From Williamwhitmania taraxaci (GTDB lineage: Bacteria > Bacteroidota > Bacteroidia > Bacteroidales > Williamwhitmaniaceae): a DNA stretch of 24,000 nt. The stretch is taken from positions 22,789-46,788 of the forward strand of contig NZ_FMYP01000029.1 in assembly GCF_900096565.1 (NCBI RefSeq). The letters are read 5' to 3'. The translations under genes were made by a program, and so were the position numbers. Numbering within the stretch: position 1 is the first letter of the stretch; every line of letters starts with the position of its first letter. The notes under the pieces were generated by a model that was not told the DNA's origin, ran no database searches, and was given only the letters and a program-made list of their open reading frames with translations. Positions 10,214 to 18,414 of this stretch are shown here, one piece after another.

Positions 10214-10221
10214 TACCTTTG
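10214..10221 (+). promoter_or_regulatory. Bacteroidetes-type -7 promoter box TACCTTTG for the acyltransferase operon
   Basis: Exact match to TAnnTTTG, 20 nt upstream of the ATG at 10242. It overlaps the GTG at 10221 that the ORF track uses as a start, which argues against that start. Confidence 0.45.
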
Positions 10222-10241
10222 TGAATTTAACCGTTGTGAAC

Positions 10242-11129
10242 ATGGGGCAAACCGAAAATACGGATAGCGTTGCCAAAGATGCTTCCGCCAACTTTATCGA
10301 CGTTGAAGGCCTTATTGCCAAGAAGAGTCCGAAGCTTTTAAAGATGCTCCCCAAATGGTTGATTCGCTACCTTAAGCGAATCGTGCATCAGGACGATTTG
10401 AACGGCATGATCCGCCGTCTGGGACACCTTCAAGACATTGAGTTTGTAAACGCTTGCCTTGCCGACATGGGGATAAGCTACACCGCACAGGGGCTGGAGA
10501 ACCTACCCGCCAATGGTCGATTCATATTCGCCTCCAACCACCCGCTTGGGGGCCTCGATGGCTTAATTCTGCTTAGCGAAATGCAAAAGCACTTCCCCGA
10601 TATAAAGTTCGTGGTAAACGATCTGCTCATGAACCTCGATCAGCTTTCGGGGCTCTTTGTCCCTGTAAATAAGCATGGCGGGCAAAACATCGACTACGTA
10701 CGCCGCATTGAGAATACCTACGCCTCCACGGCGCAAGTTCTTTACTTCCCCGCCGGCCTTTGCTCCCGCCGAATTGGCACCGCTATCATGGACTTGGAGT
10801 GGAAGAAGAGTTTTGTGTCCAAGGCAATAAAGCACCAGCGCGACATAGTACCTATATTCTTTGAGGGACGCAACTCCAATTTTTTCTACAATTTGGCGCG
10901 CGTTCGCAAATTCTTCGGCATCAAAGCGAACATTGAGATGCTTTACCTTGTTGATGAAATGTTTCGGCAAAAGGGAAAGGCCATAAACCTTATTGTAGGT
11001 GAACCAATCCCTTACACCACTTTTACTAAGGAAAAAACGCCCCAGGATTGGGCTCTCTTTATACGAAAAAAGGCTTATGCGCTAAAGAACTCCGGCAAAA
11101 AACAGCAGCGGTTCAATGATGGCGTATAA
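10242..11129 (+). CDS. PlsC-family lysophospholipid/lyso-lipoamino-acid O-acyltransferase (GlsA/OlsA-like)
   Basis: Acyltransferase block I (FASNHPLGGLDG, an NHx..D type) and block III-like YFPAGLCSRR (cf. FPEGTR). Immediately followed by a GNAT/OlsB-like gene. Confidence 0.7.
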   Translation: MGQTENTDSVAKDASANFIDVEGLIAKKSPKLLKMLPKWLIRYLKRIVHQDDLNGMIRRLGHLQDIEFVNACLADMGISYTAQGLENLPANGRFIFASNHPLGGLDGLILLSEMQKHFPDIKFVVNDLLMNLDQLSGLFVPVNKHGGQNIDYVRRIENTYASTAQVLYFPAGLCSRRIGTAIMDLEWKKSFVSKAIKHQRDIVPIFFEGRNSNFFYNLARVRKFFGIKANIEMLYLVDEMFRQKGKAINLIVGEPIPYTTFTKEKTPQDWALFIRKKAYALKNSGKKQQRFNDGV

Positions 11130-11162
11130 ATAAAAAAGTTACATTTGACAAATTTCAATACT

Positions 11163-12125
11163 ATGCAACCACTAATTGCCCCAGTGGACAACTCCCTCAT
11201 CATTAAGGAACTTACACGGGAAAAATTTCTTCGCAGAACAAACAACGGTGGAAATAAACTGTACATTGTAACCGCACACGACTCGCCCAACATTATGCGC
11301 GAAATTGGTCGCTTGCGCGAGCTCACCTTCCGCGTAGCTGGCGGAGGAACCGGATTGAGTATGGATATCGACGAATTCGATACCAGCGAAAACCCCTACA
11401 AGCAACTTATCGTTTGGGATCCAAAAGATAGGGAGATACTGGGCGGCTATCGCTTCCACGTGCTTCATCATAAGGACGATCACATGAACATAGCTACTTC
11501 GGAGCTATTTTCCTTTACCGATAAATTCTTGGAGGGATACCTTCCTCATATGATAGAGTTGGGCCGCAGCTTTGTGCAGCCAAACTACCAAAGCACCGGC
11601 CGCATTAGCAAGGGAATGTGGGCCTTGGATAACCTCTGGGATGGCTTAGGTGCCCTCACGGTGGAATACCCCGAAATTAAATACTTCTTTGGCAAGGTTA
11701 CCATGTACCGCTCATACCACATGGAGGCGCGAAACTATATCCTTTACTTCCTCGACAAATACTTTGCCGATAGGGAAAACCTCGTAATCCCAAACTTCCC
11801 CATCGAGCTCGACATCAACCAAGAGGAGATGCAAAAGGTATTTATTGGCAACACCTACCAAGAGGACTACATTATCCTCAACAAGACGGTGCGTGGCTTG
11901 GGCGAAAACATTCCTCCACTCATCAACGCCTACATGAACCTCTCCCCCTCCATGAAGGTGTTTGGCACCGTGCTAAACCCTCACTTTGGCGATGTAGAGG
12001 AGACGGGGATTCTGCTCACCATAAGCGATATTTACGCCAAGAAGCTCGATCGGCACGTGAAAACGTTCCTCCGTAGGCCACGATTCTTGGACCGACTGAA
12101 AAGCAAAAAAGATTCCATTAGATAG
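11163..12125 (+). CDS. GNAT-fold hemolysin-like N-acyltransferase (OlsB/GlsB-like lipoamino-acid synthase)
   Basis: 320 aa from the ATG at 11163. It contains ELGRSFVQPNYQ, the OlsB/Acetyltransf_5-type core I recall for amino-acid N-acyltransferases. Paired with a PlsC-like gene, as in ornithine-lipid and glycine-lipid loci. Family assignment is from memory of motifs, not a search. Confidence 0.6.
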   Translation: MQPLIAPVDNSLIIKELTREKFLRRTNNGGNKLYIVTAHDSPNIMREIGRLRELTFRVAGGGTGLSMDIDEFDTSENPYKQLIVWDPKDREILGGYRFHVLHHKDDHMNIATSELFSFTDKFLEGYLPHMIELGRSFVQPNYQSTGRISKGMWALDNLWDGLGALTVEYPEIKYFFGKVTMYRSYHMEARNYILYFLDKYFADRENLVIPNFPIELDINQEEMQKVFIGNTYQEDYIILNKTVRGLGENIPPLINAYMNLSPSMKVFGTVLNPHFGDVEETGILLTISDIYAKKLDRHVKTFLRRPRFLDRLKSKKDSIR

Positions 12126-12954: not shown

Positions 12955-14214
12955 TTATCCAAAATACTGGCTTAGATTAGTTGGGGTTGCAACTATCTTA
13001 TCAATTAGATCATTGTTTACAATCCAAAGTTCATAACGTTCAATGTCGCAATCATAGTTATTTTTAAGTATGCTATGATTTAACTCAAGCCGTAACCAAT
13101 ACTTTGTAAGTTCGTGATCTATTCTAAGTAATTCATTTATATCTTTAGTCTCTGCTTTAATCTTTTCTTTAAAGATTAAAAGGCATGGCCGCTCAATAGT
13201 TAATGAACCAATGATGTCTACAAGAACATACTTCCCATTATCTTGTGGTATTAACAAATCTACTTGACTATAAACTTTCCTGGCATCGTCCTTTATAAAT
13301 AGATTGAATAGTAAACTATCACGATCGATATACTCTTTCAATAATCTATTCAAAACTGAATGCGAAATGATTCTTCTATTTTTGCCCTTTGTGCTCAGAT
13401 AGAGAAATGCAGCATGATGTAATCTACTACCTGATTGCCTTTCTTTCTCGAAAGAATCTGATTGAAAACTAAATTTATCATCCTCTTCAAGCATTTTCAT
13501 TGAAGATCGATAATCTGGGTAATGGTCAGAAAATTCATCAACATTAATGCCAGCATCTTTGCTTAATGTTTGATGTTTAACTGTTATTTCATCGTAAAGA
13601 AAAGACAAGGAATCAAGGGGAATAAACTCTTCACTATATGTTCCTTTTCGGGTATTGTACCAGCCACATTTAATCTTAATAGAAGAAACTTCTTTAATCA
13701 AACAGTTTTCCAACTTTGTATCATATAACTTAGGACTGTCTACCTTTTCAAACCCTTTTACAAAAAACAATGGCGAAATAAATCGATTAATGTAACGTGA
13801 CTTACTCGGTTCCATCTCATTTGCAAATTGTTTCATTACCTCAATAACTCTTGTTTTCAGGGTCAATACAGTTCCTAAGGATAAAGATTCAATGTTCACA
13901 GAAGAAATATGATGCTGAAATTGAGTTAAGTGAGGTTCCAGAAACCAAGCATCCTTTACCTGACCCAATTCAAAATCAAACCATTGGCATAAATATTTAT
14001 TGTGAGAACTCACCTGTTTCGAGGTTTTTTCATCAAAAATATGCTCTGGTTTAGGATTGTGATTAACTTCTATCACCAGCATAAACGGCGCATCAAACTC
14101 TTTGCTGTTATGATTACCTAAAGCCCAATTACCCGCTTGATTTAAATTAGGATGAGAAGTAATTGCAACTATATCACCGATTTCAAAAATAGGTTTGATA
14201 TTTTTTGTTTCCAT
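12955..14214 (-). CDS. Uncharacterised protein (419 aa from the ATG at 14214; 436 aa if the TTG at 14265 is used). Divergent partner of the reverse transcriptase, with two tandem ~95-aa repeats and a distinct C-terminal domain.
   Basis: A long uninterrupted ORF in very AT-rich DNA, where stops are frequent. Internal repeat: KQVSSHNKYLCQWFD versus KEVSSIKIKCGWYN, each preceded by a G-[DT]-[IV]-[VL] strand and an [AS]P-hydrophobic strand. No signal peptide or TM helix. No family motif recognised. Confidence 0.75.
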   Translation of the reverse strand: METKNIKPIFEIGDIVAITSHPNLNQAGNWALGNHNSKEFDAPFMLVIEVNHNPKPEHIFDEKTSKQVSSHNKYLCQWFDFELGQVKDAWFLEPHLTQFQHHISSVNIESLSLGTVLTLKTRVIEVMKQFANEMEPSKSRYINRFISPLFFVKGFEKVDSPKLYDTKLENCLIKEVSSIKIKCGWYNTRKGTYSEEFIPLDSLSFLYDEITVKHQTLSKDAGINVDEFSDHYPDYRSSMKMLEEDDKFSFQSDSFEKERQSGSRLHHAAFLYLSTKGKNRRIISHSVLNRLLKEYIDRDSLLFNLFIKDDARKVYSQVDLLIPQDNGKYVLVDIIGSLTIERPCLLIFKEKIKAETKDINELLRIDHELTKYWLRLELNHSILKNNYDCDIERYELWIVNNDLIDKIVATPTNLSQYFG

Positions 14215-14215
14215 T

Positions 14216-14249
14216 TTTGTTTTAAAGGTAGAAATAATAGTTACTTTTG
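14216..14249 (+). promoter_or_regulatory. Candidate Bacteroidetes promoter (TTTG-N22-TACTTTTG) driving the RT leader and RT gene
   Basis: TACTTTTG at 14242-14249 is the only exact TAnnTTTG match on the plus strand between 14215 and 14640. A TTTG -33-like element lies at 14216-14219; the spacing is 22 nt against a consensus of 19-21. The predicted TSS is near 14255. Confidence 0.45.
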
Positions 14250-14383
14250 GTTGGGTTGGAGCCAATTATTTAAAGTGTTGCAGTTAATTGCGTCAATGTA
14301 TTGAAGGTTCTTTTTATAATTTTCAATCAACTATTAGCAACGGTTAATAGGGAGAAGAGTTAATGTAATTTCGGACATTCCCA

Positions 14384-14401
14384 AATTCATTCGAATGAAT
14401 T
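14384..14401. promoter_or_regulatory. Perfect 18-nt palindrome AATTCATTCGAATGAATT in the RT upstream region (operator or RNA hairpin)
   Basis: Read directly; it is self-complementary over all 18 positions. It lies between the predicted promoter (14242-14249) and the first possible RT start (14443). Confidence 0.4.
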
Positions 14402-14442
14402 GGTGAATTTCCTTGAGCATTAGGCCAAGCATGTAATCTATT

Positions 14443-16227
14443 ATGCACTCTAGAAGTAATTCTACAGGAATCATAGATGACACTGCTATCAGCAAGGCTA
14501 GGTTAGTATTTATCACTATCATGGTTTTCTGCAAAGTCAAAATTGACCCAGTATTCAATTACTTGGATAGTGGCGCACTAGAAATAGGTATGCAACATTT
14601 ATTTACAACACTGGGGTTGGCTCCTCCCATCTTTTTACAAAATGAAATGAAACCCAATAAGGATTGGTTTAAGCCTAAAGGCTATCTTCATCTCGATGAT
14701 AAGATTACATTCGACCAACGCAACTTGATCCAGCGAAAGGTATCGAACGTAAGTTTTGTGGGTAATCATGCTTTCCTACCCCTCCTATATAAAACAGTAA
14801 CTCAGAGAAAGTATAAAAAGATAAAACAACCAAATGGAATCGTTAGACGCAGCCATACGGAAATAAAAAACGGTAAGGTTATTCCCACCAAAAAAGTCAG
14901 GCCAATAATGTATGCATCACACCTCGATGCTCAAATTTATGCCTACTATGCCAATAAAGTTCTGGGTGAGAAATATGAAAAATTACTTAAACAGACGCAC
15001 GCACTAAGCAACTGCATTTGTGCCTACCGAAAAATCCCTTCGGATGATGGAACGAAGAAGAAGAATAATATAAGTTTTGCCCACGATGCCTTTCAGGAAA
15101 TAAAGCGAAGAGGCGAATGTGCTGCCATCGCACTTGACATTGAAAGTTTTTTTAGCTCGCTCGACCATGTCGTTTTGAAACATCAATGGTGCCAACTACT
15201 TGGCAAATCGATTTTGCCCAAAGATCATTACAATATCTTCAAATCAATTACCCGTTTCCATTATATTAACATTAATGACTTTAAAACAACGCATAATGGA
15301 TTTGACGAAGCCCATATTGCTGAGTTAAGAAAGAAAGGAATCCACTCCTTTCTGGAATCGCCCAAAGAGTTGCAAGAACTCATTCGCACTAAGCAAATTC
15401 TAGTTCACAAAAATCAATTCGTAAGAAAGAAAGAGGCTGTAAATGTATTGGTTGGCATACCACAAGGGCTTGCTATAAGTGCAATGCTTGCCAACATCTA
15501 TATGTATGCCTTCGATAAAATGATATATGAGGAGCTGGTTTTGAAACGAGGCGTATTTTATAGAAGGTATTCGGATGATATTGTTCTTGTATGTGAAACA
15601 GATGAACGCAATGAGGTTTTATCTTTTGTGATGGATGCAATTCGAGGCAAAGAAACTCAATTAACTATCTCCGAGAAAAAAACTGAAGTGTCTACTTTCA
15701 AAAAGGAATTTGTCGGTAAAGAAGAACGACTACAGGTATATAGGGAAGAGACAGGAACTCCCAGATATAATGTACCTTTCGTTTACCTTGGTTTTGAGTT
15801 CTACGGTTATCAAACCCTAATAAAGTCAGCCAACCTTGCAAAATACTATCGCAGATTAAAGGATTCAATTCGAAGAGCAAGCCGTAGAGCAGACAGAAAA
15901 AAGGAGAGAGACCTTTCTGACGAAAAAATTCTCTTTAAGACAAAATTGTTTCGCCAATTAACCTTTAAGGGAAGGAAGACAAGAATGCTAAAGATCAAAC
16001 GATCAAAACGTATTAAGGATATGTTTGGCAACTGGCAGTATATAGTAGAAGAGTCTCCGCGAAAATACCGAGGGAATGTCTTTAGGTATGTGTATAATGC
16101 AGCCAATGAGATGAACGCCCCTGAAATAAAAAGACAGTACAGGAATCATTGGTCAATAATGGAAAAAACGGTTAATGCATACAATTTTGTGAACACTAAA
16201 CTAAATCAAGAGAAAAAGACATCGTAA
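14443..16227 (+). CDS. Reverse transcriptase (RNA-directed DNA polymerase), stand-alone Abi/UG-like type. The start is uncertain; alternative ATGs are at 14590 and 14647.
   Basis: All RT blocks are present. These are KVRPIMYASHLDAQIY (motifs 1/2), CAYRK, AIALDIESFFSSLDH (motif A, Asp at nt 15136-15138) and GIPQGLAISAMLANIYM (motif B). The remainder are YRRYSDDIVLV (motif C, YSDD at nt 15568-15579), LTISEKKTEV and FVYLGFEF. A basic helical thumb-like tail follows (RGNVFRYVYNAA). Confidence 0.92.
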   Translation: MHSRSNSTGIIDDTAISKARLVFITIMVFCKVKIDPVFNYLDSGALEIGMQHLFTTLGLAPPIFLQNEMKPNKDWFKPKGYLHLDDKITFDQRNLIQRKVSNVSFVGNHAFLPLLYKTVTQRKYKKIKQPNGIVRRSHTEIKNGKVIPTKKVRPIMYASHLDAQIYAYYANKVLGEKYEKLLKQTHALSNCICAYRKIPSDDGTKKKNNISFAHDAFQEIKRRGECAAIALDIESFFSSLDHVVLKHQWCQLLGKSILPKDHYNIFKSITRFHYININDFKTTHNGFDEAHIAELRKKGIHSFLESPKELQELIRTKQILVHKNQFVRKKEAVNVLVGIPQGLAISAMLANIYMYAFDKMIYEELVLKRGVFYRRYSDDIVLVCETDERNEVLSFVMDAIRGKETQLTISEKKTEVSTFKKEFVGKEERLQVYREETGTPRYNVPFVYLGFEFYGYQTLIKSANLAKYYRRLKDSIRRASRRADRKKERDLSDEKILFKTKLFRQLTFKGRKTRMLKIKRSKRIKDMFGNWQYIVEESPRKYRGNVFRYVYNAANEMNAPEIKRQYRNHWSIMEKTVNAYNFVNTKLNQEKKTS

Positions 16228-16515: not shown

Positions 16516-18414
16516 TTAGTAGGCTCTCTCCTTCCTACCCTCAATAAAGTTGATAAAGGAGGTGTTTACCACCCTATTACCACCAGGTGTTGGGTAGTTT
16601 CCGGTAAAATACCAGTCGCCAAGATCGTTGGGGCAGGCGGCATGAAGTCCCTCAATGGTTTGGAATACCAGCTGCAGGTCGGCCTTCATATCGGCCGGAC
16701 GGAGCATCTGGCCAATTTTATGCGCAATTTCGGTAGGACTAAAGGGGCTGTAAATTCCCTTCACATAGTTCATCACCTCCTCCTTGGGTAGGTTTTGCTG
16801 CTCCTTACACTTTTGGTAAACCGAATCGATGATGCTTTGCCTTCCCGTCTCCTTGAGCAGCTCAATGGCAGCACGGAAGGCGGCAAAATCGCCGAGGTTG
16901 CTCATATCTATCCCATAGCAATCGGGGTAACGAATTTGAGGGCAGCTGCTCACCACCACAATCTTCTTGGGTTGTAGCCTATCGAGAATGCGGAGGATGG
17001 ATCGTTTAAGCGTGGTTCCGCGCACTATGGAGTCGTCAATCACCACGAGGTTGTCTGTTCCCGCACGAACGGCCCCATAGGTAACATCGTAGACGTGGCC
17101 CACCAGATCGTCGCGGCCGCTATCCTGCGAAATAAAGGTGCGGAGCTTCACGTCCTTAACGGCAATTTTCTCCACCCTTGGTCTAGATGCGATAATGGTA
17201 TCGAGCATTTCGGGTGTAATGGTAACTCCCGCCTTTATAATTGCTTCCTTTTTCTGGTTCAGCATATGGGTCTCTACCCCCTTTACCATACCATAGAATG
17301 CCGTTTCGGCCGTATTTGGAATAAAGGAGAATACGGTATCGTCCAGCTCGTTGTTCACGGCCTCAAGGATGGCAGGGGTAAGCAACTCACCCAATTTCTT
17401 CCGCTCCTTATATATATCGCTATCGGTTCCGCGCGAGAAGTATATTCGCTCAAAAGAGCAAGACTTACGCTCCTGCGGCACACGAATTTCGTTGTGGCTA
17501 ACACTCCCGTCGCGGCGAATGATTAGGGCACAACCCGGCTTTATCTCCTGCACCTTTTCGATGGGAACGTTAAGTACCGTCTGGATTACCGGACGCTCAC
17601 TGGCCACCACCACAATCTCATCGTCTTGGTAGAAGAACGCCGGACGAATGCCCCACGGATCGCGGGCCACAAAAGCATCGCCATGACCGAATAGCCCGGC
17701 AAGGGCATATCCCCCGTCGAAATCTTTAGTTGCGCGCTGAAGCACCTTTTCAATGCTAAGGTTGTTTTGAATGAACTCCGAGATTTGGGCGTTGCTCATT
17801 CCCTCATTCTTATACTGGCGGAAGAGGAGTTGGTTTTCGTCGTCGATATAGTGGCCCAGCTTCTCGAGCACTGTTACGGTATCGGAAACGTCGAGTGGAT
17901 GCTGGCCCAGCTCAATAAGCTTGTTGAAGAGCTCCACCACGTTGGTCATGTTGAAGTTTCCGGCGAGCACCAAGGTGCGTGTTTTCCAGTTATTCTCACG
18001 CATTACCGGGTGCACATACTCTATGGAATGGTTACCAAAGGTTCCGTAGCGCAGATGTCCAAGGTAAAGATCGGCTGCAAACGGTATGTTGTGCAGGGCA
18101 AAGTTGGGGTCGGCTTGCTTTTCGGGTTCGAGTGAAAAGCGATTAATCCCCGCAGAGATATGATCGAACACCTCCTTTATGGGAGAGGCTGAGTTGGAGC
18201 GAATCCTATCGATATAGCGTTTCCCAGGAGGCAAGTTAAGCTTAATACCGGCTACACCGGCGCCATCTTGTCCTCGGTTGTGCTGCTTCTCCATAAGCAG
18301 GTAAAGCTTTTGGATTCCATACTGCCAAGTGCCGTATTTCTCCTGATAGTAGCTAAGTGGCTTCAGTAATCGGATGAGGGCTATGCCGCACTCATGCTTA
18401 ATTTGGTCGCTCAT
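16516..18414 (-). CDS. purF: Amidophosphoribosyltransferase (glutamine PRPP amidotransferase), long Bacteroidetes form
   Basis: Ntn-amidotransferase start (MSDQIKHECGIALI) with the catalytic Cys after a short propeptide. PRTase motif VVIDDSIVRGTTLK. 632 aa. Confidence 0.88.
   Translation of the reverse strand: MSDQIKHECGIALIRLLKPLSYYQEKYGTWQYGIQKLYLLMEKQHNRGQDGAGVAGIKLNLPPGKRYIDRIRSNSASPIKEVFDHISAGINRFSLEPEKQADPNFALHNIPFAADLYLGHLRYGTFGNHSIEYVHPVMRENNWKTRTLVLAGNFNMTNVVELFNKLIELGQHPLDVSDTVTVLEKLGHYIDDENQLLFRQYKNEGMSNAQISEFIQNNLSIEKVLQRATKDFDGGYALAGLFGHGDAFVARDPWGIRPAFFYQDDEIVVVASERPVIQTVLNVPIEKVQEIKPGCALIIRRDGSVSHNEIRVPQERKSCSFERIYFSRGTDSDIYKERKKLGELLTPAILEAVNNELDDTVFSFIPNTAETAFYGMVKGVETHMLNQKKEAIIKAGVTITPEMLDTIIASRPRVEKIAVKDVKLRTFISQDSGRDDLVGHVYDVTYGAVRAGTDNLVVIDDSIVRGTTLKRSILRILDRLQPKKIVVVSSCPQIRYPDCYGIDMSNLGDFAAFRAAIELLKETGRQSIIDSVYQKCKEQQNLPKEEVMNYVKGIYSPFSPTEIAHKIGQMLRPADMKADLQLVFQTIEGLHAACPNDLGDWYFTGNYPTPGGNRVVNTSFINFIEGRKERAY

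Follow-up and report, generated by a model that had tools for sequence, protein, structure and literature searches.

The 24-kb stretch of DNA analysed here (the window) carries a reverse transcriptase (RT) gene, a structured region directly upstream of it on the same strand, and a divergently oriented YodC-like gene (Table 1). By its profile and structure matches, the RT is a divergent DRT2/UG2 enzyme. The PADLOC Drt2 profile matched it with E=2.7e-132, against 1e-23 for the next family, and the comparison with the solved Klebsiella Drt2 structures 9c0i and 9lje gave E=3e-56 over residues 6-453. The NCBIfam Drt2 model (NF041746) was by far the best family and matched over the full length; its score of 354 bits lies under the equivalog cut-off of 390, which points to a divergent Drt2 subfamily. 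Plasmid relatives of the RT are annotated as drt2. In PADLOC, the similarity to Drt9, Drt3a and UG17 was far weaker than that to Drt2. An RT of the retron clade was also considered and rejected, since the best retron-type profile among those listed, RT_Ec107-like, gave E=1.9e-10 compared to 1e-132 for Drt2.

An earlier, sequence-only reading of this DNA had named three possible start codons for the RT, the ATGs at 14443, 14590 and 14647, and its arithmetic of the corresponding leader lengths was correct. The homologues begin with MxxxKDWFKxRGY at the position equivalent to 14647, and most of them have no open in-frame extension. The third ATG was thus retained and the other two were dropped. 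The extension of the coding sequence to 14443 was rejected also because the Drt2 profiles match only from residue ~64-70 of this long ORF.

The protein encoded by the divergent neighbour was matched by the PADLOC profile RTasWYL-YodC (E=1.2e-31, residues 10-208), and a YodC-like gene was found upstream in 80 out of 80 loci with enough sequence. A WYL Pfam domain is present in 5 of the 14 aligned long forms, while the C-terminal half of the window protein had no Pfam match. When PDB sequences were searched with a YodC-like protein profile, no match was returned. The YodC/WYL-like neighbour would probably act by sensing or regulating.

Table 1. Features of the locus, in window coordinates.
Feature	Position	Strand	Basis
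YodC-like accessory gene, long form, WYL-like C-terminal half, divergent from RNA and RT	12955-14214	-	PADLOC
Possible -33 element TTTG	14216-14219	+	Seen in sequence; weakly conserved
Bacteroidetes-type -7 box TACTTTTG	14242-14249	+	Sole exact match in spacer; equivalent place in related loci
P1 closing helix, 5' arm (10-bp core 14258-14267)	14249-14267	+	RNAduplex, swap test
Second long-range helix, 5' arm, pairs with 14591-14600	14273-14282	+	RNAduplex
Pseudoknot helix, 5' arm GCGUC, pairs with GGCGC 14572-14576	14290-14294	+	Type-swap test
Hairpin H1, ATTGAA/TTCAAT, 10 bp in minimum-energy fold	14300-14327	+	Covariation
Hairpin H2, CTATTA/TAATAG	14331-14350	+	Covariation
Antisense stop-free frame, 74 codons, spans whole unit; repeat peptide LQKTMIVINTNLALLIAVSSMIPVELLLECIIDYMLGLMLKEIHQFIRMNLGMSEIT	14337-14558	-	ORF translation
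Candidate template unit, 171 nt (57 codons), from GTA (14365-14367) to base before GTC (14536-14538)	14365-14535	+	Homology to GTA...GTA anchors
Perfect 18-nt palindrome AATTCATTCGAATGAATT, tip of first template stem-loop	14384-14401		Shuffles
3' scaffold: helix J (14547-14551/14611-14615), hairpin (14553-14558/14563-14568), small GAAA hairpin (14578-14587)	14533-14636	+	Model R1, covariation
P1 closing helix, 3' arm, then U5 (14632-14636)	14615-14632	+	Swap test, model R1
DRT2-type reverse transcriptase, 526 aa	14647-16227	+	PADLOC, PDB structures, start conserved among homologues

Predicted promoter and fold of the upstream RNA

The sequence-only reading had placed a promoter far upstream of the RT. 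A re-scan of the plus strand confirmed TACTTTTG as the sole exact TAnnTTTG between 14215 and 14640, and the TTTG proposed as its partner was found at its given position, with 22 nt between the two. The motif as such does not exceed chance, with 23 matches in the window compared to 21.4 expected. A TAnnTTT[G/A] box is, however, located a few nucleotides from the start of the closing helix P1 in 65 of 84 related loci, and it is this position, not the motif itself, that makes the box credible. The -33 element is weakly conserved: TTG or TTTG occurs in the -33 window in 12-15 of these 65 loci. Transcription is predicted to start from the -7 box at about 14254-14257, and with the RT starting at ATG 14647, ~390 nt would be transcribed ahead of the gene. 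Only 11 nt separate the 3' arm of P1 and its U-run from the RT ATG, and the conserved box lies beside P1; the RNA and the RT gene would share one transcript with this box as its promoter.

The same reading had considered the leader to be the cognate structured non-coding RNA of the RT, and had pointed to conservation and covariation in homologous upstream regions as a check. Both were clearly found. We examined ~85 Bacteroidota relatives, with several tests performed over 84 loci. The covariance model R1, built without the window, matched 84 of 100 loci, and its sole match in the 24 kb was at 14533-14636 (45.7 bits, E=1.6e-8). This match to the 3' domain, the DRT2-type RT, and the conservation of spacer length and structure in the Bacteroidota homologues all support the earlier proposal. 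R1 had no match in the sequences upstream of drt2 genes from Pseudomonadota and Thermodesulfobacteriota, and homology of the RNA with that of the characterised system is therefore not demonstrable. A search of Rfam 15 gave no match at gathering thresholds in the 24 kb, and chance-level matches alone at E<=10 in 14000-14900. The predicted fold of the entire RNA is more stable than those of its shuffles (-107.1 vs -85.0 +/- 4.9 kcal/mol, z = -4.5).

Its overall plan comprises a 5'/3' closing helix, two covarying hairpins, a poorly conserved centre and a pseudoknotted 3' scaffold. In the window, the 5' arm of P1 pairs with 14615-14632 at -24.1 kcal/mol (RNAduplex). Over the 84 loci, cognate arms gave a median of -20.3 kcal/mol, compared to -10.5 for swapped arms. 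The arm sequences are wholly different between clades and their complementarity is retained; in the family alignment, the T-run after P1 is nearly invariant. The 5' domain also pairs with its own scaffold better than with a swapped one (RNAduplex, -15.4 vs -11.5 kcal/mol, p=3e-17), and one locus, L082, has a perfect 11-bp version of the second long-range helix. For the pseudoknot helix, which crosses helix J, a fully pairing 5-mer was found 20-25 nt after P1 in 74 of 83 loci, compared to 16.5% for non-cognate scaffold types, with 21 sequence types covarying. These comparisons show a predicted fold in which the 5' domain and the 3' scaffold are locked by the pseudoknot and the ends are paired via P1.

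Within the scaffold, 93.3% of the positions examined for covariation over 84 loci are paired, against 69.6% in shuffles, and none of 500 shuffles scored as high. RNAalifold on an alignment made from sequence alone gave one scaffold hairpin, and the other helices were obtained with a hand-set structure and realignment to a covariance model. A third scaffold hairpin, TTTAT/ATAAA, paired poorly and was rejected; pairing with the 5' domain probably takes its place.

The leader, a stretch of 430 bases, had previously been described as a series of four short hairpins, two of which were upheld. H1 has changes on both sides at all 6 pairs and is 88.8% paired (15 loci), and H2 has them at 5 of 6 pairs and is 74% paired. 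Their covariation score was 0.656, compared to 0.295 for shuffles, and slid controls were 31-47% paired. The hairpin CAATTA/TAATTG at 14263-14290 proved spurious, with 70.7% paired vs 68.8% in shuffles and an overlap with the better-supported closing helix. TAGAA/TTCTA at 14451-14464 falls within the unalignable template region, and in the minimum-energy fold it forms only the end of a stem. As predicted here, the RNA is a closed, pseudoknotted fold, and not four small hairpins.

Such a structure also bears on a simpler view of the region, as a long 5' untranslated region controlling translation of the RT (an attenuator, or riboswitch-like), or with 14443-14646 as an N-terminal extension of the RT. 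The mechanical ORF does run from 14443, and P1 with a U-run so close to the RT start could attenuate. This view is opposed by the starts of the homologues and the reach of the Drt2 profiles described above, by the lack of an Rfam family match, and by a ~380-nt pseudoknotted fold with an antisense coding constraint, which far exceeds the needs of a leader. We consider it highly improbable.

The candidate template region and its antisense open frame

The centre of the RNA shows little sequence conservation, and its predicted fold has three stem-loops. Most likely, this segment of ~171 nt loops out as a template. We infer the boundaries of the unit, 14365 and 14535, from positional homology to the GTA...GTA anchors of Flavobacteriaceae. 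These flank the region in most Flavobacteriaceae-type loci; in the window, GTA (14365) is matched with GTC (14536), identical at 2 of 3 nucleotides. A search of the window's clade for direct repeats of at least 5 nt marking a jump site found no consistent repeat. The perfect palindrome of 18 nt, AATTCATTCGAATGAATT, noticed earlier in this region is real, as 0 of 100 shuffles reached 18 nt. In 27 of 84 loci there are perfect palindromes of 10-22 nt, centred at a distance of 140-159 nt upstream from the scaffold. Their position is kept, while their sequences differ and are often centred on TCGA or ACGT.

What the sequence-only reading did not contain is the antisense open frame, which on present evidence is the key functional feature of the region. 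The frame is open in 70 of 84 loci, compared to 5.3 expected; by itself, the window's open frame is not significant (P=0.07). Among the Flavobacteriaceae-type units, 53 of 57 are fully open antisense, against 1.2 expected, and 1 of 57 on the sense strand. Stops are found 0-8 nt outside the unit on both sides and none inside, including the 20-58 nt before the first ATG. The anchor-to-anchor length is a multiple of 3 in 46 of the 57. In the window's own clade, members of the same subgroup differ in length by multiples of 3. In one Flavobacteriaceae subgroup, the length of the units is not divisible by 3. The peptide is hydrophobic in a frame-specific manner (GRAVY 0.77 vs -0.12). AlphaFold modelling of three repeats gave a pLDDT of 51, a low confidence at which the model can be described as "helical" only.

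If the window unit is joined circularly, the junction codon is ACT, and therefore no stop arises at the repeat junction. The predicted sense-strand junction, GTTTTCTGCAAA followed by GTAATTTCGG, is a sequence absent from the genome, and the 57-residue repeat would read ...GMSEITLQKTMIV... across it, with SEIT passing into LQKT. For Flavobacteriaceae, the junction predicted in locus L021 is ...GAAATTTAC followed by GTACCTTTGC. An exact -7 box stands at +1 of the antisense unit in 10 of 57 loci, and in 3 loci a perfect TTTG-N20-TAnnTTTG is formed only across the junction. At the junction assumed for the window, we found no -7 box (TACTTTG, one base short) and no -33 element at the right spacing. 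The open frame, its steps of three, the hydrophobic peptide and, in some loci, the junction promoter are, as far as sequence can tell, the hallmarks of a DRT2 neo gene.

If the frame is so consistently open, might it not be simply an ordinary gene? The RNA could serve the RT as scaffold or template, and the frame could be a chromosomal small gene whose product is a hydrophobic peptide of the membrane, such as a toxin or an effector. The abundant sense RNA might restrain it as in type I toxin-antitoxin systems, and no repeat gene would be made. In-frame ATGs do occur 4-81 nt into the unit, with a stop soon after it, and in some loci a -7 box closely precedes the first ATG in the linear genome as well. 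Gene callers predict such ORFs (63 aa in L165, 45 aa in L166), the peptides are hydrophobic like small toxins, and an ORF across both anchors would also have a length in multiples of 3. An ordinary gene would, however, have no need for the open stretch ahead of the first ATG that is seen in 53 of 57 loci. The conserved RNA ends, moreover, are read in all three frames in different subgroups, indicating that these ends are conserved as RNA and not as protein. The -33 partner of the -7 box is present only across the junction, the ORF is retained in either orientation of the YodC gene (it persists in all 8 loci where this gene is flipped), and the homologous characterised system makes neo. With these points against it, we regard the ordinary small gene as unlikely.

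The effector might also be the DNA itself. The RNA would then template repetitive or homopolymeric DNA that acts as such, in a DRT9- or DRT10-like manner, or it would serve as a decoy or sponge, with the open frame not being the effector. Other UG RTs of class 2 are reported to produce DNA that is a non-coding repeat or a homopolymer. Substitutions in the frame show no third-position excess (169/147/160 by codon position) and the synonymous excess is modest, 23% vs 15-16%; the amino-acid sequence is therefore barely conserved, as this proposal would have it. It is also favoured by the window's lack of a junction promoter and by the perfect palindrome at a conserved template position, suggestive of a role at the DNA level. 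Without translation, nothing explains why stops are avoided in a single frame, why the lengths change in steps of three and why the hydrophobicity is specific to the frame. The RT is also far nearer to Drt2 than to Drt9, Drt3a or UG17. An effector acting as DNA thus appears distinctly unlikely.

A candidate repeat gene in Bacteroidota DRT2 systems

The explanation that we favour, and consider probable when taken as a whole with the repeat gene included, is that 14250-14636 encodes the non-coding RNA of a DRT2 (UG2) defence system in Bacteroidota. This RNA would be the template for an antisense repeat gene that arrests or kills the cell. The RT would bind the pseudoknotted RNA core and, upon phage infection, copy the template repeatedly by jumping between GUA 14365 and GUC 14536. 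The resulting tandem-repeat DNA would be made double-stranded and its opposite strand read as an endless open frame. The encoded hydrophobic, helical repeat of 57 residues would then arrest or kill the cell.

In DRT2, the ncRNA is encoded directly upstream of the RT and there is one start site; short repeats flank the template, the scaffold is pseudoknotted, and neo lies in antisense (Tang et al., 2024, 10.1101/2024.05.08.593200; Wilkinson et al., 2024, PMC12039810). The present system resembles that of Klebsiella pneumoniae in several respects. The RTs are homologous over their full length, and the ncRNA is directly upstream on the same strand, so close that the RT could hardly have a promoter of its own. 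The template, which is conserved least of all parts of the RNA, forms three stem-loops and lies 5' of the pseudoknotted scaffold; in most Flavobacteriaceae-type loci, it is flanked by short conserved trinucleotides. The antisense frame is free of stops with a length in threes, and the promoter halves lie at opposite unit ends, here in a subset of loci. There are also clear differences. The predicted RNA is ~380 nt here vs 280 nt in Klebsiella, and shares no detectable sequence or covariance-model similarity with it; its ends are closed by the long P1 helix. The candidate unit measures 171-189 nt (57-63 codons) vs 120, and GUA (GUC in the window) takes the place of ACA (ACA-1/ACA-2) as the flanking motif. 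The candidate promoter conforms to the Bacteroidetes -33/-7 consensus and has its -7 box 1 nt away from the junction, and the repeat peptide is strongly hydrophobic. Finally, the RT is ~100 residues longer and is invariably accompanied by a YodC(-WYL) gene.

For UG2 variants 2 and 3, Mestre et al. (2022) described exactly this gene pair with its constant spacer, and predicted group-specific RNA structures; the main text of that study contains no template, antisense ORF or mechanism. There, the accessory gene is judged optional, whereas it is present in 80 of 80 loci of the clade examined here. Compared to variant 3 (YodC+WYL) of that text, the window protein has the YodC part, and its C-terminal half is the portion without a Pfam match. 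Conceptually, the RNA is similar to telomerase RNA and to DRT10 (UG17), with a repeatedly copied template situated between a boundary helix and a pseudoknot. It differs in having a unit of ~171 nt with a reading frame, and in an RT that matches UG17 with E=1e-23 against 1e-132 for Drt2. Retron msr-msd is alike in that a structured RNA beside the RT has its ends closed by a long inverted repeat, P1 resembling a1/a2. Here, by contrast, the RT is not retron-type, the RNA is upstream and co-oriented in a different layout, and no retron RNA family in Rfam was matched.

It has been reported that Neo is not readily annotated in divergent clades, and other mechanisms have been suggested there (Tang et al., 2024, 10.1101/2024.05.08.593200). 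It is tempting to speculate, rather tentatively, that the Bacteroidota systems form a distinct three-part DRT2 variant. In such a variant, a template of 171-189 nt would give rise to a membrane-inserting repeat polypeptide, and the -33/-7 promoter would exist only at the junctions. The palindromic hairpin would self-prime the second strand, and the obligatory YodC/WYL protein would gate that step by sensing nucleic acid. If true, this would explain why Neo escaped annotation in divergent DRT2 clades.

To the best of our knowledge, DRT2 is the only characterised system so far that writes a gene absent from the genome of the cell, and this has been shown only for Klebsiella-like systems. The favoured explanation would extend the same hidden-gene signature across a phylum-level clade, the Bacteroidota, where no neo gene had yet been identified. 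The Bacteroidota loci concerned run into the hundreds, and public records mostly name their RT "reverse transcriptase domain-containing protein". Gene callers at present misread the RNA gene, predicting small ORFs in both orientations and giving the RT a spurious N-terminal extension. Specific units, frames and junction sequences are now available for testing. The clade would differ from the characterised systems in its RNA architecture, the promoter grammar of its hosts, a hydrophobic repeat protein and an ever-present third gene.

The reverse transcriptase and its YodC-like neighbour

The reverse transcriptase (RT) matches the PADLOC Drt2 profile (E=2.7e-132) and the solved Klebsiella Drt2 structures (E=3e-56), and shares about 30% identity with drt2-annotated genes on plasmids. 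Its NCBIfam Drt2 score of 354 bits falls under the equivalog cut-off of 390, and the RTs closest to it share just 50-56% identity; it belongs to a divergent DRT2 subfamily. In the mechanical reading frame (14443-16227), the Drt2 match begins only at about residue 64-70. In nearly all of 77 homologues the protein starts with MxxxKDWFKxRGY where the window has ATG 14647, and an open in-frame extension upstream is absent from most. Homologue starts and profile match thus define an RT of 526 aa, separated by a 432-nt spacer from the ATG of the divergent gene. The two other start codons considered in the sequence-only reading, at 14443 and 14590, are present in the sequence, as is 14647. Mechanical and public gene calls place further false ORFs in the RNA genes of related loci: one of 124 aa in L161 (1380-1754, plus strand), and short ones in L165 (1686-1877, minus) and L166 (1965-2102, minus) that represent fragments of the antisense frame discussed below.

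The comparison covered 80 Bacteroidota genome loci, 80 metagenome loci and 7 contigs of the closest proteins, with Prolixibacteraceae-like, Flavobacteriaceae, Cytophagales, Chitinophagales and Sphingobacteriales relatives. In an iterated search of the 84 loci hit by the RNA model, every one of the 80 with enough sequence proved to have a YodC-like gene upstream; 72 of these genes diverge from the RT and 8 share its orientation. Flavobacteriaceae have short forms (~235-250 aa); long ones (~375-440 aa) are seen in Cytophagia/Sphingobacteriia as well as the window's clade. The Pfam WYL domain was found in 5 of 14 long forms, and not in the window's own protein. The RT and YodC-like pair can be assigned to the UG2 'variant 2/3' of Mestre et al., and in this clade the YodC-like gene looks obligatory rather than accessory. 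The neighbouring genes look housekeeping; upstream of the system lie an acyltransferase (PF19576) and a GNAT-like gene, and downstream a protein with a glutamine amidotransferase domain. No obvious defence island surrounds the system within the window.

Features of the locus (window coordinates)
Feature	Position	Strand	Remark
Housekeeping-like neighbours	10221-12125	+	
YodC-like gene	12955-14214	-	divergent; matches RT-associated YodC/WYL-YodC profiles
TTTG	14216-14219	+	22 nt from -7 box
-7-like box TACCTTTA	14222-14229	-	3' end 8 nt before YodC-like gene ATG (14214)
-7 box TACTTTTG	14242-14249	+	
P1 arms	14249-14267, 14615-14632	+	GGAGCCAA/TTGGCTCC
Antisense stop-free frame	14337-14558	-	spans unit
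Candidate unit	GTA (14365-14367) to base before GTC (14536-14538)	+	171 nt / 57 codons; by positional homology
Palindrome	14384-14401		18 nt
RT N-terminal 'extension'	14443-14646	+	68 codons; false ORF in RNA gene, mechanical call
Scaffold model match	14533-14636	+	45.7 bits, E=1.6e-8
U-run	14632-14636	+	after P1 3' arm
RT	14647-16227	+	
Housekeeping-like gene	16516-18414	-	

Predicted promoter and fold of the leader RNA

The first ~19 nt after the -7 box pair with a segment just 5' of the RT start, forming a closing helix (P1). Its arms are wholly different in sequence between clades (in Sunxiuqinia GTTTCTGAAACCAAG/CTTGGTTTCAGAAAC, in Flavobacteriaceae GTAAGGAAGTTCT/AGAACTTCTCTTAC), while complementarity is kept. 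The median is -20.3 kcal/mol for cognate and -10.5 for swapped arms; the 5th percentile of swaps is beaten by 81% of cognate pairs. A swap test also supports a further 5'-3' helix (14273-82 with 14591-14600). A 3' scaffold model, built from 72 loci with the window left out, matches the window once and 84 of 100 loci. In the 84-locus alignment its three helices are 93.3% paired (69.6% in shuffles; 22-44% in slid controls), with 319 double-sided changes against 97 in shuffles. GGCGC (14572-14576), which follows the first scaffold hairpin, pairs with GCGUC (14290-14294). The partner 5-mer, 20-25 nt after P1, pairs fully in 74 of 83 loci, compared to 16.5% for non-cognate scaffold types, and 21 covarying types occur, e.g. 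GGTTC/GAACT, GGTAC/GTACC, GGCTC/GAGCT and GGTCA/TGACC. Since this helix crosses scaffold helix J (14547-51/14611-15), the RNA core is a pseudoknot. Folding the complete RNA gives z = -4.5, with the central region forming three stem-loops, the first capped by the palindrome.

The hairpins proposed at 14300-14327 and 14331-14350 (H1, H2) are real and covary in 15 loci of the window's clade; the one proposed at 14263-14290 is not. The fourth, at 14451-14464, falls in the central segment, which does not align between loci. The proposal that the leader is a template-like RNA cognate to the RT is supported by the scaffold match, the P1 swap test and covariation, which in the relatives' upstream regions involves scaffold, H1/H2 and pseudoknot. 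The homologue starts, the scaffold match and scaffold covariation rule out both a plain leader and an N-terminal RT extension. The leader is very probably the structured ncRNA of the RT. No Rfam family matches it, nor does the scaffold model match the sequence ahead of drt2 genes in other phyla; we regard it as a putative DRT2 ncRNA of Bacteroidota-specific architecture.

The promoter elements lie where the sequence-only reading had placed them, and the -7 box is the sole exact plus-strand TAnnTTTG between 14215 and 14640. Such matches are common in the window (23 on both strands, 21.4 expected), so the box has no significance by count. The promoter inference gains support from the relatives: 65 of 84 loci have a -7-like box within a few nt of where P1 begins. 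From its overlap with this region, the minus-strand box points to promoters arranged back to back and to a YodC mRNA with almost no leader. A U-run follows P1 in nearly all loci (family alignment A4, columns ~112-120), ~10 nt before the RT start codon; together they could end most transcripts, making the RNA far more abundant than RT mRNA.

An antisense frame in the central segment

In Klebsiella DRT2, a 280-nt ncRNA directly upstream of the RT, sharing one start site with it, carries a 120-nt template between ACA motifs and a basal stem, and a pseudoknotted scaffold in its 3' part. Rolling-circle reverse transcription yields double-stranded tandem-repeat DNA that has a promoter only across repeat junctions, and the antisense strand carries a stop-free frame, 'neo' (10.1101/2024.05.08.593200; PMC12039810).

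Upstream of the RT in the related loci, the longest stop-free run has a median of 249 nt antisense versus 159 nt sense, at a constant location. Of 57 non-redundant loci, 46 keep a multiple of 3 between the RNA-level anchors bounding the central segment, GATTAR...GTA and CGTA...scaffold (198, 201, 204, 207, 210, 216, 189, 123), and one antisense frame of this interval is fully open in 53 (1.2 expected from shuffles), compared to a single locus for the sense strand. The 150 nt upstream of the covariance-model-defined scaffold start are open antisense in 70 of 84 loci (5.3 expected). The sense strand of these 150 nt is open in 19 (4.1 expected), an excess that may be a side effect of the hydrophobic codon content of the opposite strand. 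In the window's clade, H2-to-3'-anchor distances form three subgroups, each differing internally by multiples of 3 (191/185/182; 187/184/160/136/118; 186/162).

Several loci have in-frame stops 0-8 nt beyond the unit, on either side, and none inside. The conserved RNA end sequences are read in all three frames depending on subgroup, indicating that the ends are conserved as RNA and that the frame constraint covers exactly the part between. The peptides are hydrophobic in the open frame only (median GRAVY 0.77 versus -0.12), with a membrane-like 19-residue window in 39 of 52 open-frame peptides against 11 of 104 in other frames. Their residue-by-residue conservation is poor; synonymous changes reach 23% in the open frame versus 15-16% in the others, with no third-position substitution excess in the antisense frame. 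Were the RNA to template a non-coding repeat product, these frame-specific constraints would be left without explanation.

The multiple-of-3 rule is broken in one Flavobacteriaceae subgroup (distance between GTA anchors). In L008, L009, L017 and L088 (181 nt) the antisense frame continues through the scaffold (IEPLAEFSTHVA...). L012, L029 (182 nt) and L016 (185 nt) have no fully open antisense frame and may be decayed or use another jump site; L102 measures 184 nt. In the two closest GTC-type relatives, L162 (1560-1671) and L166 (2036-2129), the anchors lie about 93-111 nt apart, making the central segment much shorter. An extra AAAGTT motif sits ~48 nt 5' of the usual one, a stop directly precedes the usual 3' anchor, and the template of these loci may stop at the inner motif.

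The serious rival is that the antisense frame is an ordinary small gene, from which a hydrophobic product, ATGs and a stop would be expected, and gene callers do call such ORFs. However, the frame is already open throughout the 20-58 nt ahead of the first ATG, the unit ends are read in three frames, the ORF is kept in 8 of 8 loci with a flipped YodC gene, and the -33 element is found only across the junction. This last point comes from circular antisense units built for 57 loci, which contain 17 exact TAnnTTTG boxes, 11 of them at +1 or +2 after the junction. In three loci (L010, L021, L032), a minority, a perfect TTTG-N20-TAnnTTTG arises only on joining two units, which is the Klebsiella DRT2 logic in the Bacteroidetes promoter consensus.

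The candidate unit of the window

In the window, the joined unit ends give codon ACT, so the antisense frame is endless. The repeat peptide LQKTMIVINTNLALLIAVSSMIPVELLLECIIDYMLGLMLKEIHQFIRMNLGMSEIT (GRAVY 0.99) is predicted, with low confidence, to be helical. The flanking motifs agree at just 2 of 3 nt, GTC replacing GTA across the window's whole subgroup; TACTTTG at the junction misses a -7 box by one base and has no suitably spaced -33 element; and the open frame by itself has P=0.07. The case for the window therefore depends on the family.

The palindrome is real, none of 100 shuffles reaching 18 nt. Perfect palindromes of 10-22 nt centred 140-159 nt upstream of the scaffold occur in 27 of 84 loci, with differing sequences (TATATCGATATA, CCCAACGTTGGG, TTATCAATCGATTGATAA, TTCTTAAACGTTTAAGAA and others). 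As the loop is itself self-complementary, a role in DNA or on either strand alike is suggested, and one may speculate about fold-back priming of the second strand.

Neither the Klebsiella DRT2 papers nor the main text of the UG2 survey by Mestre et al. report a neo-like gene for this clade. Judged from these comparisons, the RNA family bears the signature of a neo-like repeat gene, and we consider it fairly probable that the full DRT2/neo-like mechanism would operate at this locus.
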